From positions 354,032-405,664 of the forward strand of contig NW_027104315.1 of NCBI RefSeq assembly GCF_902728285.1: a stretch of 51,633 bases of DNA, given 5' to 3'. Shown in pieces: positions 3,719-39,162 of this stretch. The notes under the pieces are model-generated. The model was not told the origin of the DNA. It worked only from the letters and a program-made list of their open reading frames with translations, and searched no databases. The position numbers and the translations under genes are program-made. Position 1 is the first letter of the stretch, and every line of letters begins with the position of its first letter. Source of the DNA: Clytia hemisphaerica. Lineage: Eukaryota.

Positions 3719-4028
3719 TTCAACGAAATCATATCATCAACTCAAATCGACAAGTCAACATAACGGTACAACAAAAATGACAAATCAAAACGCGAAAAAA
3801 AAACAAAAAAAAAACGGACAAATAGACAATCCTACAGTTGAAAGCCAGCAAACATTCATTCCATTCATCATAAAAATCGGAATAATCCGATTTAAAAAAC
3901 TGGTTTTCGTCACCAGGTTTTAGATCGATCGCAAAAGAATAATCCCAACTTGCACTGACACAATAAAAATACAAAATATTTGCTATTGGCATTGCAATAT
4001 ACGATGCCTTTCTATATAATTGTTTTAG

Positions 4029-4194
4029 GAGGAGGCGGAGATATAACACGGTATAATGGATTTGACTATTACTTCAGTTCTGTGACTAAGACATGGCAAA
4101 ACGCAGAAATAAATTGCATTGATCGAGGCGGCCATCTTACAAGTGTCCATTCAGGAGCAGAAAATAATTTTTTGAATCAACAAATTAGTACTAG
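4029..4194 (+). CDS. Exon, C-type lectin domain N-terminal half (GGGGDITRYNGFDYYFSSVTKTWQNAEINCIDRGGHLTSVHSGAENNFLNQQIS); enters in phase 1, so upstream signal-peptide exon(s) were not found
   Basis: Acceptor ttgttttag|GAGG, donor AG|gttcgt; CTLD motifs (C..GG.L.S+HS..E..F); phase chains to next exon. Confidence 0.7.
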
Positions 4195-4963
4195 GTTCGT
4201 ATATAATACCATTTAAGGACTCTGGCCATAGTCGGAAAATTGATTTTAGTATTTGAACATAAAAGTTATGTTTTAGGTTCTTTAACACTTTTAACAAAGA
4301 ATTGCCTTTATAAATTGCTTTTTAATCAAATCCCTTAAGAGTAACTAAGAAATTTTTGAATCAACAAATTGTTGTTAGGTTTGTACAGGTTGCTTATTTA
4401 TGGCGATGATTCGTGAGAAATTTGTTTAGTAGGAGCTCTTTTGGTGCATTGATGAAGCCCTAGCTGTTAGCACTTTAAATTCGAGAGTTCCGTCAAATTC
4501 GAACAAAGTTTCTTTTTTATCATTCTGATATAACTCATGAAAGCATAATCCGTATAAAAAACCCGGTCTGGAAGCCTTTTGTTTCTTTCCATTGTTTCTT
4601 AATTGAACTTGCGTTGAGAAATTAGTTTGTTTTGCTCACTTTTTGATCATGTGATTAAATCTTAAACCAATCCCAAGGGGAATACTTGGTAACGTGATCA
4701 AATACTGAGCAAATCGATTTTTATCTTTTGATATTAACAAAGAAAAAAACTAACAAAAAGTTAAAACAATAAGCTTCTCCAGACCAGGGTTTTTTATACC
4801 GGCTATGATGAAGGTCACGCTTGTTACGATTTTCCAGTAAAAACAAAAGCAGGCAAGTTGCTCTGGAGACGAGATTGCATCCCCATTTAAACGATTAGGG
4901 TTTGTCAAGCTTGATAACGTCGTTAAAAGCCTTCTCTTTTTTGATTCCCCTAAATTGAAATAG

Positions 4964-5184
4964 GTATGATTCTCAAGTAATGCCCTGGTACGGTGGATTT
5001 AGAAGACCTGATTTGAATTTTGCATGGTCTGATGGAACAGCCTTTAGTTGGACAAAATGGGGAGAACGTCAACCAGATAATTATGGAGGAATGGAGAATT
5101 GTCTTCACCGTTGGAGATATGATGGTGTCTGGAATGATTCACCTTGTAATCCTGCATATTATTATGTCTGTAAACTTGATATAG
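4964..5184 (+). CDS. Exon, C-type lectin domain C-terminal half (…FAWSDGTAFSWTKWGERQPDNYGGMENCLHRWRYDGVWNDSPCNPAYYYVCKLD)
   Basis: CTLD signature W.W.DG…W..G.P.N…E.C…W.D..C…YVCK; acceptor aaatag|G, donor ATAG|gtacgc; phase-consistent with exons 1 and 3. Confidence 0.75.
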
Positions 5185-5336
5185 GTACGCCTATTTACTT
5201 TACCAAAAATATGACTAAAATCACTTTGAGAAGGGCTGTATTAAACTATTTCATAGAAAGGATTTGTTTTTTGAGTTCATGATATTTAACAACGTCACTT
5301 TAGTAATCAACCAACGGTCGTTTTCTTCCCTTGCAG

Positions 5337-7213: not shown

Positions 7214-7396
7214 ACACATGCCAACCTCATTTTCTCGATGCAAGTTCCACCATCTGGCAAAGGAGTACCGGATTTTCCATAGAACCTGAAGCAAGTGGTG
7301 TAAGATGCGATCGACAAATTAAGACGGGATGGTATCGGTTCAAAAGCCCTGCTGGTTCAATTATGCCCGAACAATGTCCTAATATCAATTCTTGCG
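7214..7396 (+). CDS. Exon, D8C domain N-terminal half (…RCDRQIKTGWYRFKSPAGSIMPEQCPNINSCG)
   Basis: Matches uromodulin D8C core 'CDTDLRGWYRFVG..GARMAETCVPVLRC'; acceptor cattag|AC, donor G|gtaagg. Confidence 0.8.
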
Positions 7397-7688
7397 GTAA
7401 GGCGATTCTCTAAAATCATGCAGTTCTGTTGGTAAATTTTCATAGGTATAAGATGAGATGGAATTTTTATAAGATACTTTAATAATTGGTCATTTTAAGT
7501 AATAAAAATGACGCGTTCTTTAGAAAAAGTAACAAAATTGTTTTATTACTGATTAACAACCGACCAAATCAAATAAGAGCTTGTAAAAACTCCATCTCGG
7601 CCCAAAGTTATAACAGGATATTCTACCTTAGGTAAATTTTGAAGGCTTCTTCAGACCTTATAGTTCGCAGTTGTGACGATCTCTAAAT

Positions 7689-8430
7689 CAGGGATATGTT
7701 ATAGCGGAGCTGGATGAAGGACGAGAATTCCTTAGCGGATTGCTTCTTTGTCTTTTCTATTGTAAACTGTTGATAATAGAAATCCATCTCTGTCCCCTTG
7801 AGTGTTCTGTTTTTTTAAGAAAAATGAAGCAGACAAAGTATTCATGCAGTACGTTTGCACATATTTTGCTATGATGTTCCCACTTTTCATTAAAATAATA
7901 TTTGTAGAAGATACCCCAAAAGCTTCCTTGTAAATGAAATCTATTTTTATCAGCGTGTGTTATGAATTTGAGAAGATTCATGATTTCTCTTTAAAAATTT
8001 CGGATGTAAATATTTTGAAAATATGTTTCAATTTTTTGAAATTTTTTCCATAATAAGACCTACCGACTTGCTATCTGAAAATATCAGTTAGAAAGTGAGG
8101 CACCCCGCGGTGTAGCGCGGTATTTCAAATGAAAAAGTACTATTTATAATCTTAGAGAAGAAACTTCTTATAACTTTACCAATGAAAACAATGTTTTTCA
8201 TTTTTTTAAATTGTCATTCACCAATGTTTTACAGACCCTCTTGATAACTAAAAGTTTTTAATCGTGAACGATAAATGCAGAAGCAGAATCATTGGCTAAG
8301 AGGAAATCCAAATTTCACGAGTTTGTAATTAAAAAAGTTAAATTTCATATCAAATTTTAATGTTAGGGACAGAGATAGAGCAAGGCTTTTTTAAATGTGC
8401 GTTATCCAGCTCCGCTATAAGATATCCCTG
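7689..8430. mobile_element. ~740-bp non-autonomous DNA transposon with ~28-bp TIRs (CAGGGATATGTTATAGCGGAGCTGGATG), copy A
   Basis: Terminal inverted repeats; near-identical copy at 11152-11887; short flanking direct repeats (CTAAAT). Confidence 0.85.
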
Positions 8431-9179
8431 TCTAAATATAGCACGTGAAAAGTCGAGCCACTTGCTAGAACTTTGATGACGGAATTCACACCAAAGATTA
8501 TATCAAATCATTCTCTGTTAAGGCCAGTCTCGACTTAATACACCATCAGGTCTTCTCATGAATTATTTTGAGTTCAACGACCTGCCCTACTTTAAAACCA
8601 TTACAAGGTAATTTGATGTCTTAAGTATTCAAGTGTTTTTCTTATGAATAACATAGAGGGCAAATTCTTATGTGCTCCTCTGGGAATCGATTACCATTGC
8701 AGTATTTTGAAAACGAGGTAAACATTGCTCGTGACGTAATTTATGAAAAGGTCTTTTGACTCAATTCATATGTTGTTTCCTTTATCGAGGGTAATTGTTT
8801 CACTTACACTTTTGCCATTTTTACCCTCGTTCCCACTTCTACCACCATCAAGTTGAAACATTTTAAAAAAGTGTGAAAAGTGGCTTCTTCAGCTAACTTG
8901 CATCAGGCAATGTGTAAAAACGAGACCACGCTCCTTCTAATACGGGTCCAAAATAGTGGTAAAATTCCGACGGCAACAGAGCCTTACTCTGGTCTTTATA
9001 TTACATTTTCAATCGTTACAACATAAATTATGCCTTCTGCTATCTTTAAATAAATTTATTCTCTAGTTGCATAGCGACGGATAATTAATGCAAAATTAAA
9101 ATCAAATTTATGCATTCGAAAGCTGCCATTTTGTTTTCCACTTTTCACACAAACTGCGCGAAACAAAACAAATTTGTTT

Positions 9180-9750
9180 TTTGCTTGGTGGATATTGAGA
9201 ATTTGCCACTTGGAACACGAACGGCACAAACGATCACAGTTCGGGAAATTGCATAGATCCGCAACGTTGCAAAATTCCGCAATGTTGCGTTTTTTTTGCA
9301 ACGATTCCCTCAGCGTGCGCTTCAATTTTTCGCAACGTTCCCAATGGGAGTGTGCGATTATGAACACCAACTATGACGACCAATTTTCGCAAATAGAAGC
9401 AAAATTAGGCAAAATCTGGCATATTTGAGTAGCACTTCTTCCAAGAATGATTGTGAGTAATCGCTAGGTAGGAAATTAAAATGCTAGGGTGAAAAGTTTT
9501 CTTTTGGGTTGTTCTTCAAAATGCACATTATTTTGGGACCCCGGTCCAGGCCCTGAGATGCCGGTTTTGGTCCATAGGCCATGGCTGCGAAATTATGCAG
9601 CGATAAAGCTGCGGAATTTCGCAGCACTGCGGAATATTACAACGCAAAAAATACAAAATTACGCAACGTTGCGGATCTATGCAATATTTCCCGAACTGAT
9701 CAGTGGAAATGTAGGTGGCAAAAAATGTAAGCACTTTTGCCACTTTTAAA
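9180..9750. repeat. Long inverted repeat (arms ~9235-9300 and ~9590-9700, 'GCAACGTTGCGGATCTATGCAATTTCCCGAACTG…') forming a foldback structure
   Basis: Reverse-complement arms seen directly. Confidence 0.6.
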
Positions 9751-10298
9751 CACATTTTGAAGAAACAAATAGGAATCTGATGGCACTTGTGGCACAAATG
9801 TGAAAAATATCAACGAAACATTTTCCCTCATCGAGGAAGAAGTTTGATTAGATCACTATAATTTTCCGAATAATTGTGTTCCCCGCTGTTTAATTTTCAA
9901 AAAGTATATACCCTACACCCAACGGTCTCATCATGAGACCCCCCTCCTGTTTATCTATTTTTGAAATTATTTTCAGCTACCATAAGCTGGACTGCTCTAA
10001 AAAACCTGGTTTTAGTTTATAACCACCTTATTTTAGGGTTTTTGGTGGTACAATTCCGGGCCTCTTTTTATTCAAACACCCAGCTTATTGGATTCTAGAC
10101 TAATAAACTCGTAACCTATATTTCTATGAAAATTTTCTTAATATTATCACGCTTCTAAAGTTAGTCATCTTCTTTCCGTTCTGGTTCATTATCCGTTTCC
10201 AGCCAGCATAGAACGTTATTTTAACGTTCATGTAACGTTATATGAACGTTAGGGCCGTCAGATAAACGTTGTTATGACGTTCGAAATTTCTATCACAG

Positions 10299-10508
10299 GC
10301 ACTACGTTACCAATTTGGTTAAATGGTTCACATCCAACGGAGGTTAATGTCTCAACGTCGGTCCCGGTGTGTGTTGTATATCCTGGGAATTGCTGTGCAC
10401 ATAAATACAACATTGATATCAAACGATGTCAAGATGAGGTACAAGGAGAGGATTATTTTGTTTACAATCTACCTGCTACTCCAGGATGTCCAATGTCTTA
10501 TTGCATCG
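10299..10508 (+). CDS. Exon, D8C domain C-terminal half (TTLPIWLNGSHPTEVNVSTSVPVCVVYPGNCCAHKYNIDIKRCQDEVQGEDYFVYNLPATPGCPMSYCIG)
   Basis: Matches uromodulin 'PMWLNGTHP…CC…YYVYNLTAPPECHLAYC'; the split glycine codon G|GC joins exons 4 and 5 exactly; donor G|gtaagc. Confidence 0.85.
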
Positions 10509-10517
10509 GTAAGCTTT

Positions 10518-10615
10518 CCCAGCTGGCACACAACATTGTTTCAACGTTTATTTAACGTTCACAACGTCCATATAAAGTTAGATGAACGTTAAAACAACGT
10601 TGTGTGCCAGCTGGG
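10518..10615. mobile_element. ~100-bp palindromic AACGTT-rich MITE ('CCCAGCTGGCACACAACGTTG…CAACGTTGTGTGCCAGCTGGG'), copy 1, starting ~10 bp after exon-5 donor
   Basis: Near-perfect internal palindrome; same consensus recurs at 25555-25652, 27758-27855, 31491-31587, 36062-36156, 37206-37292, 39175-39266, 40815-40911; degenerate or partial copies at ~10195-10290, ~26740-26930, 27443-27500. Confidence 0.85.
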
Positions 10616-10624
10616 TTTTACATC

Positions 10625-10880
10625 TACAGCCGTAGCATGACGAAGGGTAGAGAATCGAACTATGATGCACAAGGTTGGGGGTTTGACCCCTCTAGCCAGG
10701 TTTCTTTAAAGATTCCCAAAATGGTACTTGATACTTCTCTGCTTGGTGTTTAGCAACTAGAGAGATAGGTCAAGGACCAGTGAATGATTTCCAGGGAAAA
10801 ATGTAGCGCACTCCCCTGCCTTCGGGTAGATAGTTATAGAAAAGGGAGCTTTCGGGTATCTTTCGTCTGCGGGTCACAAA
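10625..10880 (+). mobile_element. tRNA-derived SINE copy (continues at 11118-~11135 after the nested MITE)
   Basis: tRNA-like head with GGTTCGA B-box; conserved core '…AAATGGTACTTGATGCCTCTCTGCTTGATG.TTAGCAACTA.AGAGA…CCTTCGGGTAGA.AGCTATA.GAAAAGGGAGCCTTTGGG…'; other copies at 24296-24575, ~30115-30355, ~47815-48040, fragment 1880-1940. Confidence 0.7.
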
Positions 10881-11117
10881 CATAGATTTATGAAGCCCGA
10901 AGGGCTAGATGGGGTACTTTTGCTGAAAAAATTGCCGTTGTCAGGTAGGAAATCCTACCTAGGTCACGTGACATTACAATAGAATTTCAGCGCTCGGCCA
11001 ATTAGAAGCTTCGCGGGTTTTTGAGAACAATAGCAACAATATTTTTCCGATATTCACTTTTTTTTCCTGCGATTGCTTAAAGCACGACATCTAGCCCTTC
11101 GGGCTTTATAAATCTAT
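10881..11117. mobile_element. 237-bp MITE with ~30-bp TIRs (CATAGATTTATGAAGCCCGAAGGGCTAGATG), inserted into a SINE copy; 8-bp TSD GTCACAAA
   Basis: Perfect TSD at 10873-80 and 11118-25; TIR family shared with elements at 75-352, 5670-5957, ~19440-19650 (partial) and 51285-51575. Confidence 0.85.
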
Positions 11118-11151
11118 GGTCACAAACTTTTTTACTTTACACAGGGATATG

Positions 11152-11887
11152 TTATAGCGGAGCTGGATGAAGGACGAGAATTCCTTAGCGGATTGCTTCT
11201 TTGTCTTTTCTATTGTAAACTGTTGATAATAGAAATCCATCTCTGTCCCCTTGAGTGTTCTGTTTTTTTAAGAAAAATGAAGCAGACAAAGTATTCATGC
11301 AGTACGTTTGCACATATTTTGCTATGATGTTCCCACTTTTCATCAAAATAATATTTGTAGAAGATACCCCAAAAGCTTCCTTGTAAATGAAATCTATTTT
11401 TATCAGCGTGTGTTATGAATTTGAGAAGATTTCATGATTTCTCTTTAAAAATTTCGGATGTAAATATTTTGACAAATATTGTTTCAATTGACTTGAAATT
11501 TTTTCCATAATCAGACATACCGACTTGCTATCTGAAAATATCAGTTAGAAAGTGAGGCACCCCGCGGTGTAGCGCGGTATTTCAAATGAAAAAGTACTAT
11601 TTATAATCTTAGAGAAGAAACTTCTTATAACTTTACCAATGAAAACAATGTTTTTCATTTTTTTAAATTGTCATTCACCAATGTTTTACAGACCCTCTTG
11701 ATAATTAAAAGTTTTTAATCGTGAACGATAAATGCAGAAGCAGAATCATTGGCTAAGAGGAAATCCAAATTTCACGAGTTTGTAATTAAAAAAGTTAAAT
11801 TTCATATCAAATTTTAATGTTAGCGACAGAGATAGAGCAAGGCTTTTTTAAATGTGCGTTATCCAGCTCCGCTATAAGATATCCCTG
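11152..11887. mobile_element. ~740-bp TIR element, copy B (near-identical to 7689-8430)
   Basis: Near-identity over the full length implies recent transposition. Confidence 0.85.
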
Positions 11888-12391
11888 ATTACAGTAACAA
11901 TCCCTTTGTTGATATGTAATCCGATCTCCTTTAGCCTTATGTGAAAATTTCTTAGATATGCCCTATAGCATCGGTGATCTTAATTTTTGATCATCATAAT
12001 AACAACTGTGGGGGGAGAGAATGAATTAGACTACGGTGTATAAGAATGGGTTTCCATCTAAAGGGAGAGAATCCATTAACAATGCTTTTGTTGATAGATG
12101 TGAAGCCACTTTTAGTTCCTCTGTAAAAATTCCACAAAGATTGATTGACTTATCACTTAGGTTTCCACTGGTCAGATTTCATATCCTATTTTATGTCGCC
12201 ATCACTTTTGACGTAAAAATCAGGTTTTCAGTCAATTTCTTTGAACTAAGCTTAGTCTAAAAGTTATATCGTAATGTAATTCTTTGCTTCTTTCTATGTT
12301 TTTTTATGTGTAATATTTTGATATTTTATATATCGAGACAGGGTGGAACCACCTCCAAAAAAAGAAAAAAATTATCCTGTGTTTTTTTTAG

Positions 12392-12454
12392 GAAATGAAA
12401 CACGTTGTCCTGACGGTGAAAGATCTCCAAATGGTTTCTCCCCTGGTTGCACAA
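12392..12454 (+). CDS. Small Cys-containing exon (GNETRCPDGERSPNGFSPGCT)
   Basis: Acceptor ttttttttag, perfect donor GTAAGT; phase-consistent on both sides. Confidence 0.6.
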
Positions 12455-12492
12455 GTAAGTTTTTTTCTGATATTCTTTACATGTTAATTTCA

Positions 12493-12655
12493 GTCAACCC
12501 TCTCTGACTCGATCTTCAAGGGACCAACTGCAACTTGACACAAGACTCCAGAAAGTAGTTTAAACCACTTTCCAGATGAGAAGACCATATTATTCAGTTC
12601 AAATTACAGAAAGATTCAAACAATGAAGGTTCGAATTAGAGAGGGCTGACTGTAA
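12493..12655. mobile_element. ~165-bp MITE with TIR CAGTCAACCCTCTCT…CGAATTAGAGAGGGCTGACTG; same family at 6420-6566 and 35295-35480
   Basis: Shared TIR 'ACAGT(C/T)(A/G)AC.CTCTCTAATT'. Confidence 0.65.
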
Positions 12656-13413
12656 TCAGACAATTTTCTTTCCCTAGGTCGTACATATTTTTTGCTATAA
12701 GATCAAACTGGAAACAAACTATTTAAGAGCATAACTCTTTGATAATAAGACGATTGTAAGACCAGTCTAAGAACATTTTAAAAGCTTTTTTGACACTAAA
12801 AGTCATATTGACAAAATGGTGCAATTAAGAGCGTTTTAAGAACGTTTTAAGACCTACAAAGTTAAGAGCACTAGAGGGCTTCAAAGATCTTGAATATTTT
12901 TTTAAAAACGTTGTTGCAAAATTCGATAATGTTTCTTGCCCATTTGACGCAAAAATGTTGCCACGAGAATTAAGTTTGAAGGTAAAGACAGAAATTTTGA
13001 GTGCTTTTGAAAGTCAGTGTCCACATCATTTAGAAACCAAAGTTGATTGTGAAATTTATATTTGCTTTGACCTGTACCTCGAGATATAAATACATGTTGG
13101 TGGACCAGTTTGGGTTCAAAATGTTAAAACATTTTAATATTTCCATTAACTACCTAATCGGCCGTTTTTACATCGGCCCTTATAGCCGTCATTTTTTGTC
13201 GCTTGTGTAAGAAGGGTCTAAATTAAAATAGGGCTTGGCTAAAAATGGAAAAAACGACCTTTGACGTAATGAAGGCCAGCGCAAACGGGGCCGGCACTAA
13301 ACTGGGGCCGGATTTAAAAAAAAAATGATAAGGTATAAGAATGACAGCTTTTATAAAAACTCATATGCCTCTGGTACTTTACAACATAATTGCCGTTTTA
13401 TTATTTTTTTTAG

Positions 13414-13655
13414 ATGAGTTTCCCAAATTGAAAGGAAAACCTGAAGTAACTGTTGGTAGTCATGGCAACCGAATACGTTTCACTTGTGATTTCGAACCAG
13501 AACAAATTAAGAACAATGCAAAATATAAAGTGTCATGGTACACACGCACATCTGATGGTAATGCAGAATTAGTGAAGACAGAGACGTTACATGGAAATCA
13601 AACAAAATCTTTTTTACAAAACACTGATGGGCAAAAATTCTGCTTACAGAAAAAT
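13414..13655 (+). CDS. Exon, Ig-like domain (…VTVGSHGNRIRFTCDFEPEQIKNNAKYKVSWYTRTSDGNAELV…GQKFCLQKN)
   Basis: Ig-type C…W…C spacing (FTCDF / VSWY / KFCL); acceptor tttttttag|AT, donor AAT|gtaagt; phase-consistent. Confidence 0.6.
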
Positions 13656-13704
13656 GTAAGTTGGTTCTTTTTTACAATATCCCAAATACAGTAAGTTAGC
13701 CTAA

Positions 13705-13905
13705 TGTCGACACCTCTCTTCTAATTTCGACACTCTTATTTAGAGATAGGAATAATAGGAAGGTCATAATCAATGATTGACAAAAGATTTATTCCTCTCT
13801 AATCCCTAAAGCAAAGAAAAATAATTTCAATCAGTGATTCCGACCTTCCAGTTATTCCTATCTCTAAAGAAGGGTGTCGAATTTAGAAGAGGGGTCGACA
13901 TTAGA
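13705..13905. mobile_element. ~200-bp palindromic MITE (AATGTCGACACCTCTCTTCTAATTTCGACAC…)
   Basis: Long perfect inverted repeat arms. Confidence 0.7.
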
Positions 13906-15706: not shown

Positions 15707-16628
15707 TTGAAGCTTTAGAAATTAGTTGAAACGAGATTCATTGTTTCTGACATCAGTGTAAGAAAATATTTCGACAAAAAGAGCCCTGTAAACTTGGCAA
15801 CCCTTCGTCAAATAATAAGATTTTTCGATCAATGTTTTTTTAAAGTGAACTCTATTGCTTGATACTTTCCTCCAAAATACTCCAGCCACTTAATGGCTAC
15901 AAATTGAGTCTGAAAGTGCGTGTGCTTATAAAGAACTTTTCATTTTTTGGCTTGAGAAAATATCTTTTCAAAACAAAATTGAACGGATAACGAAATGGAA
16001 CGTAAACTTGTGTCGTGGACGAAGTCTATATATTAATACGCTTAAACGTGTGTGTTTACAACGTTCTGTAAAAAGTGTTCGAAATTATAACAAAGCTCTA
16101 CAAAGCCTCTTCTTCACGGCGTTGAACCATCGTCTCTTTGCACCCCACGCAGTTTTCCTACCACTAGACTAACTTTGAGACGCCAGTATACTATTTTCTT
16201 TACAGCAACATTGGAGCTGGATGGGTTAAAATCAACCTTCTTCACAAATATATTTTTTGCTTTAGAAGATTCCTAATTCAGATGATCTTTAAAACTTTCT
16301 GTTTACTATAGCGGCTCCCTATCACTTTCAAAACTTTTCAAAGTCTTACAAAGTCACTCTCGAATGTCCAGCCACGATGGCTAGCCACGATGGCTAAAAA
16401 GATCGAAAATATAATTCTTCTAAGCCAATTACTTAATTGTGATTAAAAATTGCAATGCAATGTTATCTTTTATCTATTTTTTTCATTAAATGAAAATCGT
16501 ATCACTATTTTGGCAGTTATATTTCTTCCTACAGAGATTTTTTATATGTATAGTGATTCGCTGGATTGGGACACGCAGCGTGCGATGCTGCGCATACGGC
16601 TAGTTTTGTTTAATTTTCGAATATTAAC

Positions 16629-16892
16629 CCTTAGGAGGCGAAACACGTATATATACGTTTTGAAAAGGTCATTTTACCGATACACAGTCTTTTGGTCATA
16701 ACTGACCACTTCAGATTCAGACAAAAAAAATCTGCTATTTTTCGTAGCTGAGAGAAAGAGCTTTCTAGTGATACCAAAGTTGATACCTTAATCGTTTGTC
16801 CTGGTCGAGAAATTGCCTTTGAAAAAATAAATTTCCAGAAAAACATGATGAAATTTTTGGCCTTTTTCAAAAAAGTTAGCGGCTTTGAAAGG
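16629..16892. mobile_element. ~265-bp TTAA-flanked element (TTAA|CCCTTAGGAGG…GAAAGG|TTAA), piggyBac-like MITE, copy 1
   Basis: TTAA on both flanks, CCC…GG termini; second copy 17015-17282 is ~97% identical and 120 bp downstream. Confidence 0.6.
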
Positions 16893-17014
16893 TTAATAAA
16901 AATTTTTTAAATCTTTAAAACTGGCCCAAACTGTCCAAAATGACTATTGGTACTAAGAGAAAGTAGATAAAGGCATTTTAAATGAAAAATGAAAAATCAT
17001 TGAGTCCATGTTAA

Positions 17015-17282
17015 CCCTTAGGAGGCGAAACACGTATATATACGTTTTGAAAAGGTCATTTTACCGATACACAGTCTTTTGGTCATAACTCCTGACCACG
17101 TCAGATTCAGACAAAAAAAATCTCCTATTTTTCGTAGCTGAGAGAAAGAGCTTTCCAATGATACCAAAGTTAATACCTTAATCGTTTGTCCTGGTCGAGA
17201 AATTGCCTTTGAAAAAATAAATTTCCAGAAGAAAATGATGAAATTTTTGGCCTTTTTCAAAAAAGTTAGCGGCTTTGAAAGG
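17015..17282. mobile_element. ~265-bp TTAA-flanked piggyBac-like MITE, copy 2
   Basis: As above. Confidence 0.6.
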
Positions 17283-17723
17283 TTAAGAGGCTACAATGTT
17301 CAATACTGATAATTAAAACGTTCTGAGCAAACTTGAGTTCTACAAAAAAGGCGAGCTTAGAATTCCTTTTGATACATTTTGTAAAAGAAATCAATAGACT
17401 TTAACGACCAATTACCGACACATTCAACTCCTGTTTTTCTTTATACCTCCATGTGTTAATGTGCTAAATTTTTATTGATATCAATCTATATGATGATCAA
17501 TCTATACACTAATACTTCGAACAAACGCCCTCTTCTTTTAAACTCCCCCTCAAATAAAATTCTCCTTCAAATAAACGCCTCCCTTCTAAAATTGGTGTTT
17601 ATTTGAAACAATTAAACACCCTTCCCCCCTCGAATAAACGCACTATCTAAAATCCAAAAAAATTAATAAACGCCCGCGCCGCGTTTATTCCAAGTATACG
17701 GTATACATTTTTTTCCATTTTAG

Positions 17724-17887: not shown

Positions 17888-18184
17888 GTTACTTTATCAA
17901 CCAATACACGCTTTTTATAAGAACCAAAGAATATCATAATATGCAACTTCGAAGTCAATAATTTCGGAACATTTTGAGATCACATTTCAGGGGGTTTACA
18001 GGTTTTATTTAAACCATGCAATTTCTCATAAAATAAGACCAAGAATACTTACAAATAGCTGATAATAGGAACATTTATGCCTAAACCCATAAAGATGCAA
18101 TTTTTTGATATTCTTATCTTATAAAAGACGTGAATATTCAATTTGATACGGGATAATATTGCTTGTATAAACTACTGGATACAT

Positions 18185-18515
18185 CTGGTGCAGTGGCGTG
18201 GTGGCAGGGGGGGCCAGGGGGGCCAGCCCCCCCCCCCAGCGGGGCCCTTTTGAGAGGGGGCGCCAAAAAATAAGGGACGCCAAGAAGGATTTTTCAGGCA
18301 CCCATATCGAAAGATTGACAAATGAAAAAACAAAAATGGCGCCCCTCATTACCTCAAAAACTCAAAAATTTTTGGCTCGCTTCGCTCGCACACTCCCTTT
18401 TTGTGTTCATAAATGAGCGTATAGAGAGGGGCGCCAAAAACAAAAAATCTTTAAAAAGGGCGCCATATTTGCCTTGGCCACCCCAGAGAAATTTTCCCAC
18501 CACGCCACTGATCTG
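18185..18515. repeat. Foldback element with arms CAGTGGCGTGGTGG/CCACCACGCCACTG, long C/G homopolymers and 'AGGGGCGCCAAAAA' subrepeats
   Basis: Inverted termini and internal repeats seen directly. Confidence 0.6.
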
Positions 18516-18854
18516 GTGTTCCGGTCTTATGCGAGTCATCCTTATCCAGACACTATACCTGAATAAGTTGTCAAGACTATTAAACTTTTTGAAAAACAAA
18601 TTTTAAACTTTGAATTGCAGGATGAAATATAAGTCAATTTTCTAGCCGGGCTGAAATTCCAGGTTATTTTCACACTGGGGACGATAGTGCTGCCTAATAT
18701 TCCAATAGGGCTTGGGTCGAAGCGCAGTCTGTGATACAGGGATGTTCTTTAGATATTTTGATTAACAAATTTATGTATCTTCTCTTGGAATGACTGAAAC
18801 CACTGGGAAAACCCGCACTTTTAGGCTGGAAGTTTATTGCATTCTTCATTTCAG

Positions 18855-21815: not shown

Positions 21816-22396
21816 GTATGAAAAAAATGCTGATAATGTTGATTTTATCAATCCGGTCTCGATAATTTATTTTCCGAGTGACATGCACTTTCGAACTATA
21901 ATCATAAAAGAAATAAAAAGTTTTTCAATATAAAAAAAAAGCCATTTGCCAGAAGCTAATCTCTAACTTACAGTTATCGCTACAATACACTGGTGAAATT
22001 GTCTGAACATTTACATTGCATGTGACTATCTATTTTGCAATAGTTGCTGAAAGTTTTATTAATAACCTATAACCAAGAAGCTGCGTAGAAGAGCGAGCAA
22101 TAGTTGGTGAGAGGGTGTTGGTTAGCATCCCGCCGACAAATTTTCTTTTCAAGGCTTAACCCAATGGGACGTTCATTTTTTTCCCGCGTAATATCTCAAT
22201 AGCGTAGACAAGGGGGGCGCAAAATGTGTGTCGGAAAGCAGATTTTATGACCCAGTAATTATCCTTTTATATTATGAATAGATTATTACAGTGTCATAAA
22301 AATCTGCTCTCCTACACATATTTTGCGTGTCTACGTGTCTTTCAAGTTGGAGTGTCAGTTTACATCGCTGACTACAACCTAATTTTTTTATTTAAG

Positions 22397-22620
22397 TTTT
22401 CTTTCCCGTCTGGTGCATCCGTTCGCTTCGAAGCAAGACGTTGGTTTGGTAACACTTACTACGCAAATATCGTGGTCAAACTTCCCTCAGATGATTATAA
22501 AAATACATCTGGTTTATGTGGTATCTGGGACAGTTCGTCTTCCAATGATTTGACCAGTAAAGAAGGACAGAAATTCCAAGGAGGCGGTCAAGCGCCACTT
22601 GGTTTCACAGAAAGTTGGAA
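22397..22620 (+). CDS. Exon, VWD domain continued (…VKLPSDDYKNTSGLCGIWDSSSSNDLTSKEGQKF…)
   Basis: VWD hallmark 'GLCG..D....ND'; acceptor atttaag, donor AA|gtaaga. Confidence 0.75.
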
Positions 22621-23329
22621 GTAAGATCTATATACATCTTTTCGACCGTAGTCGCGCGGTCAGGCGCGCACCGCTTAATTATTTAGTTATCCCCCTAAAC
22701 TCGATCCAATCCTTTTTGACACATTTACCTATTGTCTATAGGTGCGAAAAAAGGACTGGGACAGTTTTAGTGGGATAAAGCGGACAAAAAAATACCCGCG
22801 TGGCAATTGGTAGCTACGGTAGAAAAGATTTATTATTGGCCAGCATCAGATATAAGCACTTTTTCATTACAACACATTTTATAAGAACTAGGCTGAAATG
22901 TTGGAAAAAATAAAAACATCATAATAATATGGCCATCCTGAAAAGGGGAAGTAAAAATATTCCCAAATTTGCTTAAAATCATATGAATTAATTTAAAAAT
23001 TCATTCTATAATTGCAGTAATTCTTTTACTTCCCATCTTTGAATTATAGCAAATTTATTTTACTGGGGGCAGCCAATTTCTATAAGTCATAAGGATATTA
23101 AGGGAATTAGGGAGTGGTCAAAAAATATCTTCTAGGTCGGGTGAAGGATTTTTTAAAAGTATTTTAGGCTCATTATTGCCAATAACATAAGCACTTTCAG
23201 GCTCAAAACCAATTAAGACGTTCTTATAAAAAAAGTTCCACAATAATAATCGGGGAAAGCAGTTCGCTACGCAAGCGTTAGCTGCAACGACGAAAATTTT
23301 GAGGGGGTGATGAAATTGTCCCCAGACAA

Positions 23330-23830
23330 ATTTTAATTTTCTACGATATTTTATTACCCAACCAAAACTTTTACCCGATTTTTTTATACCCGACCAAAAC
23401 TTTTACCTGATTTTTTCCCCACCCAAAACTTAATAAGTCTTTAAAAAATCCAAATATTAACAAAGTTTTTACTTTATGAAGATGTCCCTCACTTCCAGGC
23501 ATTTTTGTCAGAAAGAAAAGATAATAGTTTGTAGCGGTAATTTAATGTTGTAATAAAACTATTGAAACAAATGAGTATTACTAAAAATCTTGATAATTCC
23601 CTCTTATGCTCTATATTTGTCAGGAACATTTAAAAAATTTGGTTGGGGAAAAGTGACGAATTTGAAATTTCGGTCGGTGAAAAGTGACGAATTTGAATTT
23701 TCGGTCGGTGAAAAGTGACGAATGTGAAATTTCGGTCGGTAAAAAGTGACTAATTTGAAATTTTGGTCGGGAAAAGTGACGAATTTGAAATTTTGGTCAG
23801 GGGAAAGTGACAAAAATGCCTCTAGGTGAC
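23330..23830. repeat. Foldback-like structure: ~30-bp tandem subrepeats (ACCCGACCAAAACTTTTACC x3) at 23330-23440 and inverted ~38-bp tandem subrepeats (GGTCGGTGAAAAGTGACGAATTTGAAATTTC x5) at 23640-23825
   Basis: The tandem arrays share the CGACCAAAA/TTTTGGTCG core in opposite orientation. Confidence 0.55.
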
Positions 23831-25540: not shown

Positions 25541-25554
25541 GTTAGGAGATTCTT

Positions 25555-25652
25555 CCCAGCTGGCGCACAGCGTTGTTTCAATGTTAATCTAACGTTCACA
25601 ACGTCCATTTAACGTTAGATTAACGTTTAAACAACGTTGTGTGCCAGCTGGG
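25555..25652. mobile_element. AACGTT-rich palindromic MITE copy, ~14 bp after exon-15 donor
   Basis: Sequence identity to the other copies. Confidence 0.85.
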
Positions 25653-27170
25653 TTTCTACTGAATGATAATGTACAGATATCACATATACAAATGCAGTTG
25701 ACACTTTCTAATTCGTTTTTTAGGGTAACTTTTCATCGAATAAGTACTGTGAAAAGTTAAGGTCGAAATCATATATCGACGCTGTGCCGACCAATCCAGA
25801 TTATATTCAGCGCGCAATCAACGCAGAGAAAAGTAACCATAACTCTTATGGACATTAAATGGACGGCTTTAAGACCTATGGACGTCCTGGAAACATACAT
25901 TAGACGACCAAAAGACGTTTGTGCCCATCGGGATCGATGATTTCTTTGATATTCATCATCTTCTTGTTCGCCATCATCCTTTGACGTTTTTGTAAGGTCA
26001 TTGGTTGAAAAATGAAGCAATTCCACTGGTAGAAATTGACGTAACGGACGAAAAAAGCAGAACTTCCATCAATTCTTTTTTTGTTCGCGCGAAACTTTTT
26101 TATGACGTAATCTTTTGTTCAGGCAAAAAAAGGTTAAGAAAAAAACTGTCGCCCATTTCGCATGAACGTGGAGTCCGGCCTTAAGAAGTACCCTGAGTAT
26201 TAGAGGGTTAATTTTTCAAAAAATATAATAACCTCTGAAGACAAATAATAGAAACTTCATCGCGCATGTGTCAATCTAATCACTGTACAAAAAATCAAAG
26301 ATGAAGAGCAAATATTACCATATTAATGTCTAGCAGACTGTATCAGTATGCAGTTTACTATTTACGAATTCCCCAGAAACCTCCAAGTGTAATTGAAATG
26401 AGTTTATTTCGAAAGAAATCTTCTACACGATTCCCAATTGTATAACAGTCATTACTAAACTATTAGTTATGGAAATGTCACTTTAATTGAATCGAAATAA
26501 TAGACATACTTTATGTTATGATTCTCTATCACTGACTCTTTTTACAAAGCATTGATGACTTTTTGTAAATTGTGTTTTCAACGACGGGAATAAAAATATC
26601 AACTTTGAACCTCATCCAAGATCTTGGATGGTCGTCATGGTTACTTTTGTCTTCGTTGATTGCGCGCTGAATAGAATCTCGATTCGTCGGCACATCGTCA
26701 ATATATGATTTTGACCTGTGCTATTCACGGTACTTAAGAAGTTGTTTCGACGTTAGTTATGAACATTAGATGAACGTTGCAGAAACATTGTGTACCAGCT
26801 AGACAAAAGACATGAACTTATGTCTTTTGTTACCCAGCTAGCGCATGACAGGGAAAAAAACGTTGCTTCAACGTTCATCTAATGTTAGATGGACGTTATG
26901 AATGTTTGATAGACGTTGATATTAATTAACAATCTTAATTACACGCTTTTTGTATAAGAACAAACCAAAAACATAAGGTTTCGATGGCCAAAATCTTAAG
27001 AGCAAGTGAAGAACATTTTAAGGCTTTGTGGATTCTAAAACACCTGATTTCATAGGAAACTGGACCAAAATACTCACAAAATGGGGGAAATTAAGAACGC
27101 TGTTAAGAAAATATTTAGGCTAAAAACTCAAAAAATTAAGAACATCCAAATGCTTCTATAATCTTTATAG

Positions 27171-27414
27171 ATCTTGGATGATATAGAAGTTGCAACATCA
27201 TCAGCTGTTGGTGTCATGAAAGATGCATGTGAGGAAGTCACCCTTCGAAATATCACATTATGGAAAACAGATGATACTACTGGTCAACTTCAACCACCAA
27301 AAGCTGTTGCAGAAATCTTATGTCCAAACGAATGTAGTGGTAATGGTTATTGTGCTAATGCAACATGTGTTTGTGATGAAGGATATTTGTCTGCTGATTG
27401 TTCCATCCACGAAG
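27171..27414 (+). CDS. Exon, linker plus EGF-like domain (…[31 protein letters not shown])
   Basis: EGF pattern C.3C..G.C.4C.C..GY.4C; acceptor ctttatag|ATC, donor GAAG|gtgaaa. Confidence 0.7.
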
Positions 27415-27442
27415 GTGAAAAGCACAGATTTCTGTTTATCTA

Positions 27443-27855
27443 ATTTTCACAGGTCCATATAAAATTAGATAAACGTTAAAAAACGTCGTGTGCCAGCAGG
27501 GAAGAGGGACTTCTGACCATAGATTTATAAAGTCAAAAAGGCTAGATGTTCTACTTTAAGCTCTTCCAAACAAACAAAAAAGAAAGTGAATATCGCAAAA
27601 AATATTGCTGCTATTGTTTTCAAAAGACCCGCGAAGCTTCTTATTGGTCAAGCACTGAAATTCTATTGTGATGCCACGCGACCTCGGCACACTTTTCAGC
27701 CAAAACATGACATCTACCTAGAACTTTGGACTTGAATCTATGGTCAGAAGTCCCTCTTCCCTGCTGGCACACGACGTTTTTTCAACGTTTATCTAACTTT
27801 ATATTGATCTGTGAACATTAGATAAACGTTGAAACAACATTGCGCGCCAGTTGGG
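27443..27855. mobile_element. Composite: half MITE (27443-27500), a second TIR element with 27-bp TIRs GGGAAGAGGGACTTCTGACCATAGATT (27500-27762), then a full AACGTT MITE (27758-27855)
   Basis: Nested inverted repeats seen directly in the sequence. Confidence 0.7.
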
Positions 27856-28331
27856 ATTCATATCCCCTCTATCTCAGTTTATTAGTAGGGTAAATAAATT
27901 GAATTCATTGGTCTAAATATATTTTTATAACAAATCTTGCCCATACTATTTCATTAAGAGTTTACCAGAGTCTAGGTATAGGAATTCATGCCCTGGTCTC
28001 TTTGAAATTTGCATGAATTGCATTTGTCCTCCTAAAACATTACGTTCGACCATACAATTTTCATAGGGTATAGACTTTTTTTCAAATTAAAGAAATGATG
28101 TGAATAATAGTAGAAGTTCAAATTAGAGAGAGTTGAGTATTCATGATATCGATGACGTAATGTTTTCTACGGAAAGACCCCGGTTTTAGCCAGTATAGTG
28201 GCAAATTTAAACTACACTTGAAAGATGTGAATTCACAAAAAGTGGAACTCACTAAGAAACGAGATGAGAAATCCCAGTTTTTGGTGAGGTGCTCACTAGA
28301 ATATTATGAACTTTATAATGTATTTTTATAG

Positions 28332-30982: not shown

Positions 30983-31490
30983 GTATGATACACTTTTTTT
31001 CAGGCTCAGTATTGTTCTTAAATTATTTGGTGATTTTGAGCCTCATTGTTCTTATAAAATTGTTTTCATATAAAAAAGTGTATGTTTTTTTATAAGAACG
31101 AAGTATATAAGAACTATATAGTCGATGTAATGTGTTTGTTGAACAACCGTAGAGCAAATTCAATAAAGTTATATACATCTGATGATTGCATAAGTAGCAT
31201 GAAACTTTTAGTAATGTATTTTACATGGTAATTTTTGAAATATAACTTTATAGTCGATGTAGTAATGAAAAATGAGTCGGTATTTCGTTCTCACAAAATC
31301 GATTCCAACGCATTCAATATTTGTCAAAAACACCTTGGGAGCCTACTAGAATGGTTCTAAAAGTCTTAAAAATCTTCCTTTGATTGTTATAGAAACTCAT
31401 GTACAGAAGTGACTAAGTCTGAATATCAGTTGGAAAATTCAACAGATCTTCAAAATTTGTGACCCCGCACGCTTCTGCCTTCAATATCAT

Positions 31491-31587
31491 CCCAGCTGAC
31501 CCGCAACGTTGTTTCAACATTAATCTAATGTTCACAACGTCCATATAGCATTAGATGAACGTTGAAACAACGTCGTGTGCCAGCTGG
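31491..31587. mobile_element. AACGTT-rich palindromic MITE copy, ~50 bp upstream of exon-19 acceptor
   Basis: Sequence identity. Confidence 0.85.
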
Positions 31588-31639
31588 GTATATGGTGTAA
31601 AATTAGAAATGAGTTAACTTCATCATCATCGAATTTTAG

Positions 31640-32576: not shown

Positions 32577-33757
32577 GGGAGTGGTCAGAAAGTATCTACT
32601 AGGGGGGTGGAGGATTCTAGGGGGGGGTTCCAAAAATTTTTCGAGGGTTTAGGGGGGGGGGTTCCAAATCTTTTGGGCAACTCAAGAGAAAATGTAGGAA
32701 GTCTAATTTCATAGTTTTACGCTTCAAGATTTCAAAAATTTATTTTATTTGATATATGTACATGTCATACTAACATTATTTGGGCATCATCGCCTTGCCC
32801 TTTTGGTTTGTAGCATTGAGCTAAATGAGGGAAGCAGATTAGTGGCTTTCACAGCTCATCAGAGTGGTTTGAAAAAGTACTTTTCAGAAAGAAATTTGTC
32901 AAAACAAAGTGTCTTTTAGCTAAAATGGTAGTGAAAAACATCGAAATTTTCTCCCGTCGGCGCAAACCATGGTTGTGCCTCCTTAGTCTCTACTAATATC
33001 TTATAAATTATATACACAGAGCTTTGACAGACCCTGGAAAACCTGAAAATATAGGTTTTTCAAAAATAGAAATTTCAAACTCAGAGAATTTTATTTATCA
33101 GACTCCTTTTAACAACAGAATAGCTTATATTTTAGGGTCTCGAGTACCTGATCTTCAAAATTTTCTCCCTTCGGGGCCAACCATGGTGGCCCCTCAGGAT
33201 ATTTTGAGTAATTGAGTAATGCTTCTGTAATGTAGGGAGATTATGTATCAGGGAAAATAAGCCGTAATTTTCTCCCAAAACTTTGGGAAACTCAGAGAAA
33301 ATAACTCGTTGATTCTTATTTTAACCCTGGACTATTCCTATAGGAGATCTACCATTTTGATTGACGTTTACACCACGGGTTTTTTTCTTTTGTTTACTTC
33401 AGAGAAATTCCGTCGTAACCATGGAAATCGACGGAAAAAATCCCGTGGTGTAAACGTCAATCAAAATGGTAGATCTCCTAAAGGACTATACTCAACTTTA
33501 CAGGGCTAAACTATCTCCCTTACCTAATTTTGACTTAAAAACTGTCATACAAACAAATAATACTCTTTGTACCGCATCTGTATGAATTCTTTTTTTGCGT
33601 AAAAATTTTTCTAGTGGGGGGGGTGCGAAAAAATATTGGGCCTTATGAGGGGGGGTTCGAAATTTTTTTCCAGGCTAGGGGAGGGGGTGTGAAAGTATTT
33701 TGGGATTTTTCAAAATATCCTCCACTCCCCCCTAGTAGATACTTTCTGACCACTCCC
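32577..33757. mobile_element. ~1.18-kb non-autonomous DNA transposon with perfect 31-bp TIRs GGGAGTGGTCAGAAAGTATCTACTAGGGGGG, TAA/TTAA flanks; contains a ~140-bp hairpin MITE at ~33345-33485 and G-rich subrepeats
   Basis: TIRs and internal palindrome seen directly; solo TIR-like fragment at ~23103-23140. Confidence 0.8.
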
Positions 33758-34957: not shown

Positions 34958-36061
34958 TTTGCTCTTAATAACTCGAAAGTAAAAGTTATGTTTTGCTTAG
35001 TTGAATGGACCTATCAGAGTTTTCTTGATTTTTTCTAAAACAGCGATGCATTGTGGGATTGTTTCAGGAGTATTACAATAAATCTCTTAGAATTCCTCGA
35101 GGAATTCATTATACCCCGGAAACAATCCCACAATGCATTACCGTTAAAGAAAATCAAAATACCCGAACTGATTTCTTTTTTCACTGAAGATTAAGCTTTT
35201 GAGTATGAAAAACTGAAACGTTTTTTAATCAAACTAGTGGAACTGTTAAATTTTTATATTCACGGCACCTGTCTGCAAGGGTAACCCTGCTTACAAAGAC
35301 TTACAGTCAACTCTCTCTAATTCGAACCTCTATTATTCGAATTTTTCTGTAATTCGAACTAAAATTGGTCTCTAAAGCTGTAAAGTGGTTTAAATTACTC
35401 TCTATTATTAGAATCTTTCTCTAATTCGATCAAAGTTTTTGATCCCTTGAAGATCGATTTAGAGAGAATCAACTGTACTTATAAAGTCAAAAATTCTTCA
35501 ACTATTAGCTTTGTGCGAAAAACTTCTCTTTACACACCACCGTGCCACAGATCCGGTGGACCCCCAGCCTCACATGTAAATAATACCCTAGGATTTAAAC
35601 CCCACTGGATAATTAAAGTATGATTTATCCCCATTCGAAATTGGGCGGCAAAAACTACACTCCAAAACCAAAACCACCCCCGTTTTTCTTTTTGAGCTAG
35701 AAACAATGATTTTCTGTCCCCTTTCGGACTTTCATCCCCACAGAGAGAAAAAAATCCTTTAGCAAAAATTGCCTTGACTTTGATTTTTTTTTATTTACTA
35801 AGGTCACCCACTCAACTAAGCTACTTTGAAATAATTAATAAAGAATAAAATATGATCTACAAATTTAAAATACCCGTAAAGAAACGTAATGGACAAGTAA
35901 GTAGCTTGACAAAATGATATGTAATCTTGATATCTCAATCTCTTTACTTTTCCAGTTGTTCCATTGGCGAAGAGTGTAAACAAAAAAGTAAGGAAAAACT
36001 GTCTTTTTGATTTTCTAAAAGTCCATTTTGGCTTAAAGTTTAGTTAAAATAATTTGGTAGT

Positions 36062-36156
36062 CCAGTTGGCAACGACGTTGTTTCAACGTCTATCTAACGT
36101 TATATAGACGTTATGAACATTAGATAAACGTTGAAACAACGTTGTGTGTCAGCTGG
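36062..36156. mobile_element. AACGTT-rich palindromic MITE copy
   Basis: Sequence identity. Confidence 0.8.
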
Positions 36157-36418
36157 TAGGCCACTCTTAGACCATGTTCAGACGTTACGGTTTCGTTTCG
36201 CTCCGGTTTGGTATTTGTTACGGATAGAAAGTGTTCATACTCATTTCGGAACATTTTGGAACAACAAAACGGAGCAGTTCTGTTCCGATGAAAATAGTAG
36301 AGCAAAACTGTTTCTAACTGTTTTGCTTTGTAACGTCTTCTTTTTTGACGTTTTCAATTTTGACGTTCAAGGAACGAATCGTCCATACAGGATTCGAAGC
36401 TAATCAATTCCTATTTAA

Positions 36419-37125: not shown

Positions 37126-37205
37126 TTAAGTTGTGCAGATCACCTGTTTCTTATGTTGGTTGGCTTAAATGTAATTTTGACCACCAGAATTCGCCCAAAA
37201 ATACC

Positions 37206-37292
37206 CCCAGCTGACACACAACGTTGTTTCAACGTTTTTCTAACATTCACAACGTCCATATAACGTTAAATGAACGTTGTGTGCCAGCTGGG
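37206..37292. mobile_element. AACGTT-rich palindromic MITE copy
   Basis: Sequence identity. Confidence 0.8.
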
Positions 37293-38772: not shown

Positions 38773-39162
38773 CATCTCCAATGAAACTCAACTGCTATCA
38801 AAACAAAATGGAAATTGGTTTAGAATTCGATCACCTATCACGTCACTCCTTACCTTATATCGTCAAATTTCATGGTGATAATAACTGCCCAACATTAAAT
38901 GCATCTTCAGCATCTTCAATATACGATGGACGTCTATGGATGAATGCAAATTACAGTGAATGTGGTATCAAAGCTTTTGAGAGCGGAAACAAACTAGTGT
39001 TCAAACAAATCGTTGAAGTTGTGTACGGAAAACAAATGAAATCTTTAGATGTTTATCGACATTTTATTGATACTTATAACGCTTCTTGTTCGATTGATAG
39101 AAATGTTACACATAAATTAAACATCGATGTTAAAGAACAGGAGACTCTCGACGATGAAACAG
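38773..39162 (+). CDS. Exon, ZP-N domain (…LNCYQNKMEIGLEFDHL…GDNNCPTLNASSASSIYDGRLWMNANYSECGIKAFESGNKLVFKQIVEVVYGKQMKSLDVYRHFIDTYNASCSID…)
   Basis: Matches uromodulin ZP-N 'ECGANDMKVSLGKCQL…DSRCSGF…W…GPCGT…Y.N.L…I.R…I.F.CSY'; acceptor ttcaatag|CA, donor ACAG|gtaggc; enters in phase 1, so an upstream exon is required. Confidence 0.8.

Follow-up and report, generated by a model that had tools for sequence, protein, structure and literature searches.

Host gene and position of the copies

The window (the whole 51.6-kb stretch of DNA that was analysed) contains on its plus strand a gene for a Lectin_C-D8C-Ig_VWDE-VWD-EGF-ZP protein. The best protein matches of this gene were fragments from a marine-biofilm metagenome, 72–74% identical, which narrows the host down no further than to a marine invertebrate-like metazoan. 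Three of its exons frame the region described here. Exon A (7214–7396, plus strand), preceded by AG and followed by GTAAGG, encodes the N-terminal half of the D8C domain, and exon B (10299–10508, plus strand; 210 nt, phase 1-1) encodes the C-terminal half. Exon C (13414–13655, plus strand) encodes the Ig_VWDE domain and is matched by a 74%-identical orthologue fragment (P0002). All three have canonical AG/GTAAG sites and are in phase 1. In the spliced product, the D8C_UMOD match spanned the junction of exons A and B and scored 44 bits, versus 32 bits for exon B alone, and Ig_VWDE was matched at 6e-19. A homologue (P0003) was aligned over the same junction, and the sole gap in this alignment was KAG, the intron-edge residues of the unspliced query.

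The two introns delimited by these exons, both phase 1, are located at 7397–10298 (2902 nt) and 10509–13413 (2905 nt), and each holds one copy of the same element in the same orientation. Copy 1 (7689–8430, plus strand; 742 bp) is offset by 292 nt from the 5′ splice site and lies 1868 nt from the 3′ splice site of its intron; for copy 2 (11142–11887, plus strand; 746 bp) the distances are 633 and 1526 nt. Exon B is situated between the copies. An earlier note on this DNA had placed both in introns of one gene, and the exons, their splice sites and the domain matches bear this out. An introner-like element was rejected, as the copies lie well inside the splice sites of introns of this length and are not the intron itself.

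Divergence between the copies

The copies are separated by 2711 bp. Their global alignment had 735 matches, 7 substitutions and 4 single-base indels, i.e., 98.5% identity, and the K2P distance was 0.0095. The earlier description of two near-identical direct copies of about 740 bp, set 2.7 kb apart and differing by a handful of changes, was accurate, and the divergence of about 1% is well below the 5% that the note had named as its upper limit. The coordinates given for copy 1 were also right, and copy 2, said to start at 11152, was found to start 10 bp earlier, at 11142. Elsewhere in the window (47 kb), no third copy, fragment or solo terminal inverted repeat (TIR) of the element was found. 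No other repeat pair of the window is as long or as similar, the rest being 67–96% identical.

The differences are not evenly spread. Eight of the 11 fall in an A/T-rich patch of copy 1 (7976–8060, plus strand; 11430–11517 in copy 2), where the local divergence is approximately 9% versus 0.46% elsewhere in the copies. In a scan-statistic simulation, the clustering had p ~3e-4, or 7e-3 when adjacent changes were merged. The patch is of low complexity, and half of the changes in it are 1-bp indels. With eight of the 11 differences placed within ~90 bp, the copies are therefore not simply a parent and its daughter, and the clustering suggests that their sources were different variants, that a tract was converted or that the patch is hypermutable.

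The mobilisation had been called very recent. Relative to the other repeats of the window this stands, but a clean parent-daughter pair it is not, and the duplication at copy 2 is not intact (see below). It is fair to call the copies recent in relative terms, not in years: in many animals, a divergence of ~1% would correspond to roughly a million years, rather than to ongoing activity.

Termini, target sites and flanks

The 28-nt TIR at the 5′ end of copy 1 (7689–7716, plus strand; CAGGGATATGTTATAGCGGAGCTGGATG) is repeated exactly at the 5′ end of copy 2 (11142–11169, plus strand), and its reverse complement occurs with two mismatches at both 3′ ends (8403–8430 in copy 1 and 11860–11887 in copy 2, minus strand), the two 3′ TIRs being identical to each other. 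None of these matches is expected by chance: the 28-mer had zero matches in any of the shuffled windows, versus four in the real one. The 28-bp TIRs had been reported as intact; they are common to both copies, but the 5′ and 3′ repeats are complementary at 26 of the 28 positions, not perfectly. In copy 1, the complementarity extends to 34 nt at 88%.

The element ends are CAGGG...CCCTG (terminus sequence CAGGGATATGTTATAGCGG), and the homology between the copies starts and stops exactly there. The 300 bp of flanking sequence on each side are ~50% identical between copy 1 and copy 2, which is the random level. Copy 1 is bordered by the target-site duplication TCTAAAT, found on the left at 7682–7688 and on the right at 8431–8437 and matching in register at all seven positions. 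For copy 2, flank registers were compared by eye, and no clean 7- or 8-bp duplication was found. The best register matched at 5/6 over 6 bp (TTTACA, 11136–11141, and ATTACA, 11888–11893) and may be a degraded duplication. When an empty paralogous site was sought for this duplication, no repeat across the junction was found. The outer flanks of the pair form no duplication, and a composite transposon, with the outer ends moving jointly, was ruled out.

The terminal inverted repeats, the target-site duplication of copy 1, the unrelated flanks and the absence of transposase coding are features of a TIR transposon.

Coding capacity and search for relatives

The element is non-coding. Stops are present in all six frames, and the longest ORF (74 aa) had no Pfam match and no record in an exact look-up. 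The protein-database search with this ORF and the concatenated long stop-free stretches of the six frames returned no homologue, and neither an Rfam match nor a tRNA was found in the element. The note read the pair as the product of a transposase source active not long ago; the window itself holds no ORF for a transposase, its ORFs being at most 197 aa long and the large ones all host exons, and such a source would lie elsewhere.

The 27-nt TIR pattern had 0 matches in metagenome, prokaryote-genome and viral contigs. The sole match to a 21-nt TIR pattern (L003) was rejected as a chance one, being located inside a low-complexity repeat and otherwise dissimilar to the window. An internal GC-rich 24-mer gave 0 matches in genome contigs. 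The blastn search against plasmids and phages gave no match either, and thus nothing suggests that the element came from a bacterial IS or a vector. When the literature was searched as text for the terminal 10-mer, only unrelated primers were obtained.

Comparison with known superfamilies

The element resembles the P superfamily in its 7-bp duplication and the hAT superfamily in its CAGGG terminus. Its nearest known counterparts are non-autonomous elements of the P superfamily, namely BuT5 and short derivatives of 1360/Hoppel and Galileo, Ds-like or MITE-like hAT-N families, and miniature elements at large. The elements 1360 and Galileo make 7-bp duplications, and P makes 8-bp ones (PMC3698922; PMC4168063). 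The duplication of copy 1 is within the 7–8 bp of the P superfamily and the same in length as those of 1360 and Galileo, the described members with 7-bp duplications, which are Drosophila elements. The TIR of the P element is 31 bp, comparable to the ~30 bp observed here. The P element also has 11-bp sub-terminal inverted repeats, to which a candidate pair of 14 nt (7783–7796 and 8366–8379; 13/14 matching), set in by 95 nt on the left and 52 nt on the right, may be a short counterpart, but the pair is not statistically significant, an equally good one being found in 7 of 60 shuffles. BuT5, a non-autonomous member of the P superfamily, is 0.7–1 kb long and non-coding, as is the element here. 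The terminus of P is CATGATG, in contrast to the CAGGG of this element. A partner transposase of the P superfamily would have a THAP domain and a P-type catalytic domain.

The consensus of hAT termini is YARNG, which CAGGG...CCCTG fits. The TIR of Ac is CAGGGATGAAA, and its first 7 nt are the same as the terminus of the element. Over the first 11 nt, only 7/11 match, too few for the Repbase rule, which allows one mismatch in 11 and asks for duplications of equal length (PMC4455052). Duplications made by hAT elements are 8 bp, whereas the sole clean one here is 7 bp; in the 8-bp registers, copy 1 is mismatched (CTCTAAAT vs TCTAAATA) and copy 2 matches at 3/8. TIRs of 28 bp are among the longer ones for hAT. 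Ac/Ds, of the same superfamily, has a classical tendency to reinsert at linked sites.

Dada elements make 6–7-bp duplications, have no TIRs, and insert into snRNA or tRNA genes (PMC3706591). This superfamily was rejected: the element has 28-bp TIRs and an intron site, with no tRNA or Rfam RNA there. Miniature elements (MITEs) share with it the TIRs, the target-site duplication, the lack of an ORF, the A/T-rich interior and the location in gene introns. However, 742 bp is at or above their usual size limit (less than about 600–800 bp), and MITEs are defined by high copy number, whereas 2 copies were found here in 51.6 kb. The element may be a low-copy internal-deletion derivative instead of a MITE.

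Origin of the two copies

The two copies, in neighbouring introns, very probably arose by separate insertion of members of a single non-autonomous class II TIR transposon family that is moved in trans. That they are two separate non-autonomous TIR insertions follows from the TIRs, the exact limits of homology, the unrelated flanks, the duplication and the lack of coding capacity. A transposase encoded elsewhere would move the element in trans, recognising the 28-bp termini, and would cut the target with a 7-bp stagger. Inserted in adjacent introns, the copies would be spliced out and presumably neutral. Their 2.7-kb spacing and same orientation may have come from short-range reinsertion, or local hopping, which is well documented for Ac/Ds and P elements. 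The donor copy could have been kept through sister-chromatid repair or replication timing.

Some observations run counter to this explanation. The clustered differences are not predicted by a simple recent hop from parent to daughter. Copy 2 is without a clean duplication, and the family was seen in two copies only.

It is possible, if somewhat doubtful, that the insertions were independent in a stronger sense, the family being very abundant and the donors unlinked, with the proximity of the copies due to chance or to a preference for the chromatin of this gene and not to local hopping. Short TIR or palindromic repeats of other kinds saturate the window, among them an element of ~98 bp with 8 copies in 51 kb, so high-copy families do exist in this genome. 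The clustered differences also fit two source variants. The lack of any further copy, fragment or solo TIR in the other 47 kb, on the other hand, argues against a very high density of the family.

We consider it unlikely that the insertions are older than their similarity suggests. In that reading, ectopic gene conversion, either between the two linked copies or between one of these and a third copy at another locus, would have partly homogenised them, and their true age would be shown by the divergent patch of 85 bp and by the decay of the duplication at copy 2. Direct repeats 2.7 kb apart are good substrates for conversion, and the mosaic divergence, with its 8/11 differences in ~90 bp (p ~3e-4), speaks for such an event, as does an imperfect duplication at copy 2 next to a perfect one at copy 1. 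However, an A/T-rich patch of low complexity, with 1-bp indels making up half of its changes, may simply mutate faster, and two slightly different source variants could equally give both copies. The perfect 7-bp duplication argues that the insertion of copy 1, at least, is young.

The chances are small that the copies belong to an active, uncatalogued marine-invertebrate TIR lineage that makes 7-bp duplications (e.g., a 1360/Galileo-type P-superfamily element outside insects) and reinserts at short range.

If intron sequence had been duplicated, segmentally or in tandem, and a single insertion copied with it, this would account for copies that are close and in the same orientation and for introns of near-equal length (2902 and 2905 nt). 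Such an origin is nevertheless highly improbable. The similarity ends at the TIR tips, with the 300-bp flanks at the random level, and the reconstructed empty sites gave no cross-match between the loci in blastn. Copy 1 has a duplication of its own, and it lies 292 nt from the 5′ splice site of its intron, versus 633 nt for copy 2. The earlier note saw no duplicated flanks, which proved correct, and with flanks ~50% identical the segmental origin is refuted.

A pair of like-oriented direct repeats with 98.5% identity around 2.7 kb of sequence also has the geometry of the LTRs of a small non-autonomous retrotransposon (LARD/TRIM-like, 7689–11887), but this reading is effectively refuted, as the repeats are CA...TG and not TG...CA, their 28-bp inverted termini far exceed LTR termini, the outer flanks differ (TCTAAAT vs ATTACAG) while copy 1 alone has a perfect 7-bp duplication, no TGG primer-binding site follows copy 1 and no purine tract precedes copy 2, and the supposed internal region holds an exon of the host gene, exon B, by which the D8C domain is completed in frame.

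Significance

The pair of non-coding cut-and-paste transposons described here is nothing unusual for an animal genome rich in repeats; it has little importance beyond annotation and is no surprise to a transposon specialist. From it comes a clean consensus, with TIRs and a 7-bp duplication, of a DNA-transposon family that ranks among the younger ones of the genome, usable as the query with which the autonomous element could be sought throughout the genome. Exon B, phase 1-1 and encoding half of a D8C domain, has a direct copy on either side; ectopic recombination between the two copies would delete it in frame, and structural polymorphism of the host gene may arise in this way. Were the lineage indeed an active one, the copies around the symmetric 210-nt exon would be a substrate for in-frame deletion or exon mobilisation.

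Element copies and their termini

The two copies were placed in direct orientation by sequence reading and a repeat finder at 7689-8430 (copy 1, 742 bp) and 11142-11887 (copy 2, 746 bp), 2711 bp apart. An earlier note had both ends of copy 1 and the end of copy 2 right, and the start of copy 2 (11152) 10 bp off. In a global alignment, 735 columns were identical (98.5% identity; K2P distance 0.0095), and the handful of differences described at first reading amounted to 7 substitutions, of which 3 were transitions and 4 transversions, plus 4 indels of a single base. In a self-comparison of the window, the pair far exceeded all other interspersed repeat pairs in length and in similarity (the remaining pairs were 67-96% identical), and the rest of the window contained no further copy of the element, no fragment and no solo terminus.

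The 28-mer CAGGGATATGTTATAGCGGAGCTGGATG, with zero matches in shuffles of the window, was exact at the 5' end of each copy, and its reverse complement was present at both 3' ends with 2 mismatches. The TIRs, described earlier as intact, were present in both copies, and their complementarity was imperfect (26/28); as the same two asymmetries are common to both copies, they are older than the copies' split. Homology was bounded precisely by CAGGG...CCCTG. Copy 1 had a perfect 7-bp target-site duplication (TCTAAAT-element-TCTAAAT), and no 8-bp register matched there. Copy 2 had no clean duplication, the best register being 6 bp with 1 mismatch (TTTACA/ATTACA). As single-stranded DNA, the element folded through its termini (z = -7.2), as would be expected of a TIR element. 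A sub-terminal inverted 14-nt pair (7783-7796 / 8366-8379) was not significant, equally good pairs being found in 7 of 60 shuffles.

Read as LTRs, the paired direct 740-bp repeats with 2.7 kb between them could also form a small retrotransposon, but this reading fails: the CA...TG ends carry 28-bp inverted termini, neither a PBS nor a PPT adjoins the repeats, a host exon lies inside the enclosed DNA, and copy 1 has its own duplication whereas the outer flanks (TCTAAAT and ATTACAG) form none. Segmental duplication, already disfavored in the earlier note, was rejected, as the 300-bp flanks on either side were ~50% identical (the random level) and the reconstructed empty sites of both loci had no cross-match. 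Movement of the entire 4.2 kb as a composite was rejected because the outer flanks form no duplication.

Coding capacity and classification

All six frames of the element were interrupted by stops. The longest ORF (74 aa) had no Pfam match, no homologue in a large protein collection and no record in an exact look-up, and the six-frame concatenation of stop-free stretches had no match in a large protein collection. No Rfam families or tRNA genes were found in the window. The TIR and internal patterns had no real match in metagenome, prokaryote-genome and viral collections; the sole 21-mer match, in contig L003 of that search, was a chance match within a low-complexity repeat. The element was also negative in blastn against plasmids and phages, and a literature search for its sequence string was negative or irrelevant. 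As the collections contain essentially no animal genomes, these negatives are uninformative on copy number in the host.

Because TIRs and a target-site duplication are combined with unrelated flanks and no coding capacity, the element is a non-autonomous class II (cut-and-paste) DNA transposon in two separate insertions. The copies are soundly read as independent, relatively young insertions within introns of one gene. Such a pair is an ordinary feature for a repeat-rich animal genome.

The CAGGG terminus fits hAT and agrees with the Ac TIR over its first 7 nt. However, hAT requires an 8-bp target-site duplication, and the 8-bp test fails at copy 1, the sole clean site. The TIR length of ~30 bp fits the P superfamily, and the termini are unlike those of P. 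A partner from that superfamily would encode a THAP transposase. The 7-bp duplication is P-like in the manner of 1360 and Galileo (7 bp; P itself 8 bp) (PMC3698922, PMC4168063). By the Repbase rule for non-autonomous elements (first 11 nt with at most 1 mismatch, plus equal duplication length; PMC4455052), the element would not be classed with Ac. Dada, which makes 6-7-bp duplications, has no TIRs and inserts into small-RNA genes (PMC3706591); membership was rejected since the element has TIRs. The element is filed without a superfamily, as a non-autonomous TIR transposon of P-like or hAT-like kind.

Divergence and proposed mobilisation

The pair is young compared with everything else in the window, and the intact duplication of copy 1 agrees with this. 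Eight of the 11 differences fall in ~90 bp of A/T-rich sequence (7976-8060 in copy 1; simulation, p ~3e-4, or ~7e-3 with adjacent changes merged), leaving 3 per ~657 sites (0.46%) outside. Together with the decayed duplication of copy 2, this clustering may reflect two source variants that differed slightly, a short tract of conversion or a fast-mutating A/T-rich patch, none of which is a simple parent-daughter hop. The mosaic divergence somewhat complicates the claim of very recent activity; very recent mobilisation and a transposase active now are both inferences.

Mobilisation would depend on a transposase, encoded elsewhere, that binds the 28-bp termini, cuts the element out and reinserts it via a 7-bp staggered cut. 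The 2.7-kb spacing and shared orientation would most simply reflect reinsertion at short range, for which Ac/Ds and P elements are classical examples, the donor copy being presumably kept via sister-chromatid repair or replication timing. Alternatively, two unlinked donors from a very abundant family may have given rise to the copies.

Other repeats in the window

A ~98-bp palindromic, AACGTT-rich MITE-like family (termini CCCAGCTGGCACACAACGTTG...CAACGTTGTGTGCCAGCTGGG; 61-94% identity) has 8 copies in 51 kb (10516-10618, 25553-25655, 27757-27857, 31489-31591, 36058-36160, 37204-37306, 39171-39273, 40812-40914) and a partial relative at 10196-10281; one copy begins just 8 nt past the 5' splice site of host-gene exon B (donor 10509). 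A 305-bp element (27478-27782) looks young because its 48-nt TIRs are perfectly complementary. Its relative at 10958-11125 (81% identical, inverted, truncated) lies upstream of copy 2, with 16 bp between them, and does not span that insertion site.

Short foldback or hairpin elements (arms 55-82 nt, 82-95% complementarity) lie at 13712-13895, directly downstream of the exon C donor, 33333-33488, 35031-35153 and 49699-49865; in this group, 28139-28194 and 49805-49860 are 95% identical. A tandem duplication (16621-17286; unit ~387-390 bp, 96-99% identical) contains paired 79/80-aa minus-strand ORFs, and a tandem array (23638-23822) has ~6 copies of the 31-bp unit TTCGGTCGGTGAAAAGTGACGAATTTGAAAT. 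A 532-bp direct dispersed repeat (1022-1537 and 26206-26733, 84% identical; part inverted at 25741-25843) is another, older interspersed element. ORFs of 72-94 aa overlap on both strands at 18119-18606, the first two Pro/Gly-rich (e.g. GGARGASPPPQRGPFERG), and are probably a further repeat or low-complexity element.

Host gene and intron context

The window is eukaryotic DNA, with dense short repeats, no long ORFs and a GC content of 31-39% (mostly 34-37%) in 2-kb windows. Pfam matches of plus-strand ORF fragments were, in gene order, Lectin_C (3980-5282), D8C_UMOD (10274-10555), Ig_VWDE (13341-13694), VWD (22274-22624), EGF (27174-27443), ZP-N (38781-39230) and ZP-C (41007-41396), which gives a plus-strand host gene at 3980-41396 with the architecture Lectin_C - D8C - Ig_VWDE - VWD - EGF - ZP-N/ZP-C. 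An RRKRR motif directly after the ZP-C match is a possible furin cleavage site. The separate 3' run of plus-strand fasciclin (FAS1) domain exons (42959-50533; Pfam repeats 44155-50533) is apparently a second gene.

Exon borders around the copies were set by reading the sequence: exon A, 7214-7396 (183 nt; AG / GTAAGG), exon B, 10299-10508 (210 nt; AG / GTAAGC), and exon C, 13414-13655 (242 nt; AG / GTAAGT), all on the plus strand and with phase 1 at all three junctions. Across its junctions the spliced product runs ...NSCG/TTLPIWLNGSHP... and ...SYCI/D/EFPKLKGKPEV... (slashes as junction marks). Its D8C_UMOD match spans the A/B junction (44 bits, where exon B by itself gives 32 bits), and its Ig_VWDE match is at 6e-19. 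The protein homologue P0003 (38% identical) aligns through the A/B junction, the sole gap being three residues (KAG), intron-edge carry-over in the unspliced query. For exons B and C, the nearest relatives at the protein level were 72-74% identical and came from short marine-biofilm metagenome contigs. A marine invertebrate is the probable host.

Both copies were confirmed as intronic in the same gene: in intron 1 (7397-10298, plus strand, 2902 nt), the distance from the 5' splice site to the start of copy 1 is 292 nt, and in intron 2 (10509-13413, plus strand, 2905 nt), that to the start of copy 2 is 633 nt. The introns have no common sequence except the element, and their near-equal length looks like coincidence. 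Introner-like elements were rejected, as the copies are far short of whole introns. The direct copies bracket exon B (phase 1-1), and unequal recombination between them would take out one half of the D8C domain while keeping the reading frame.
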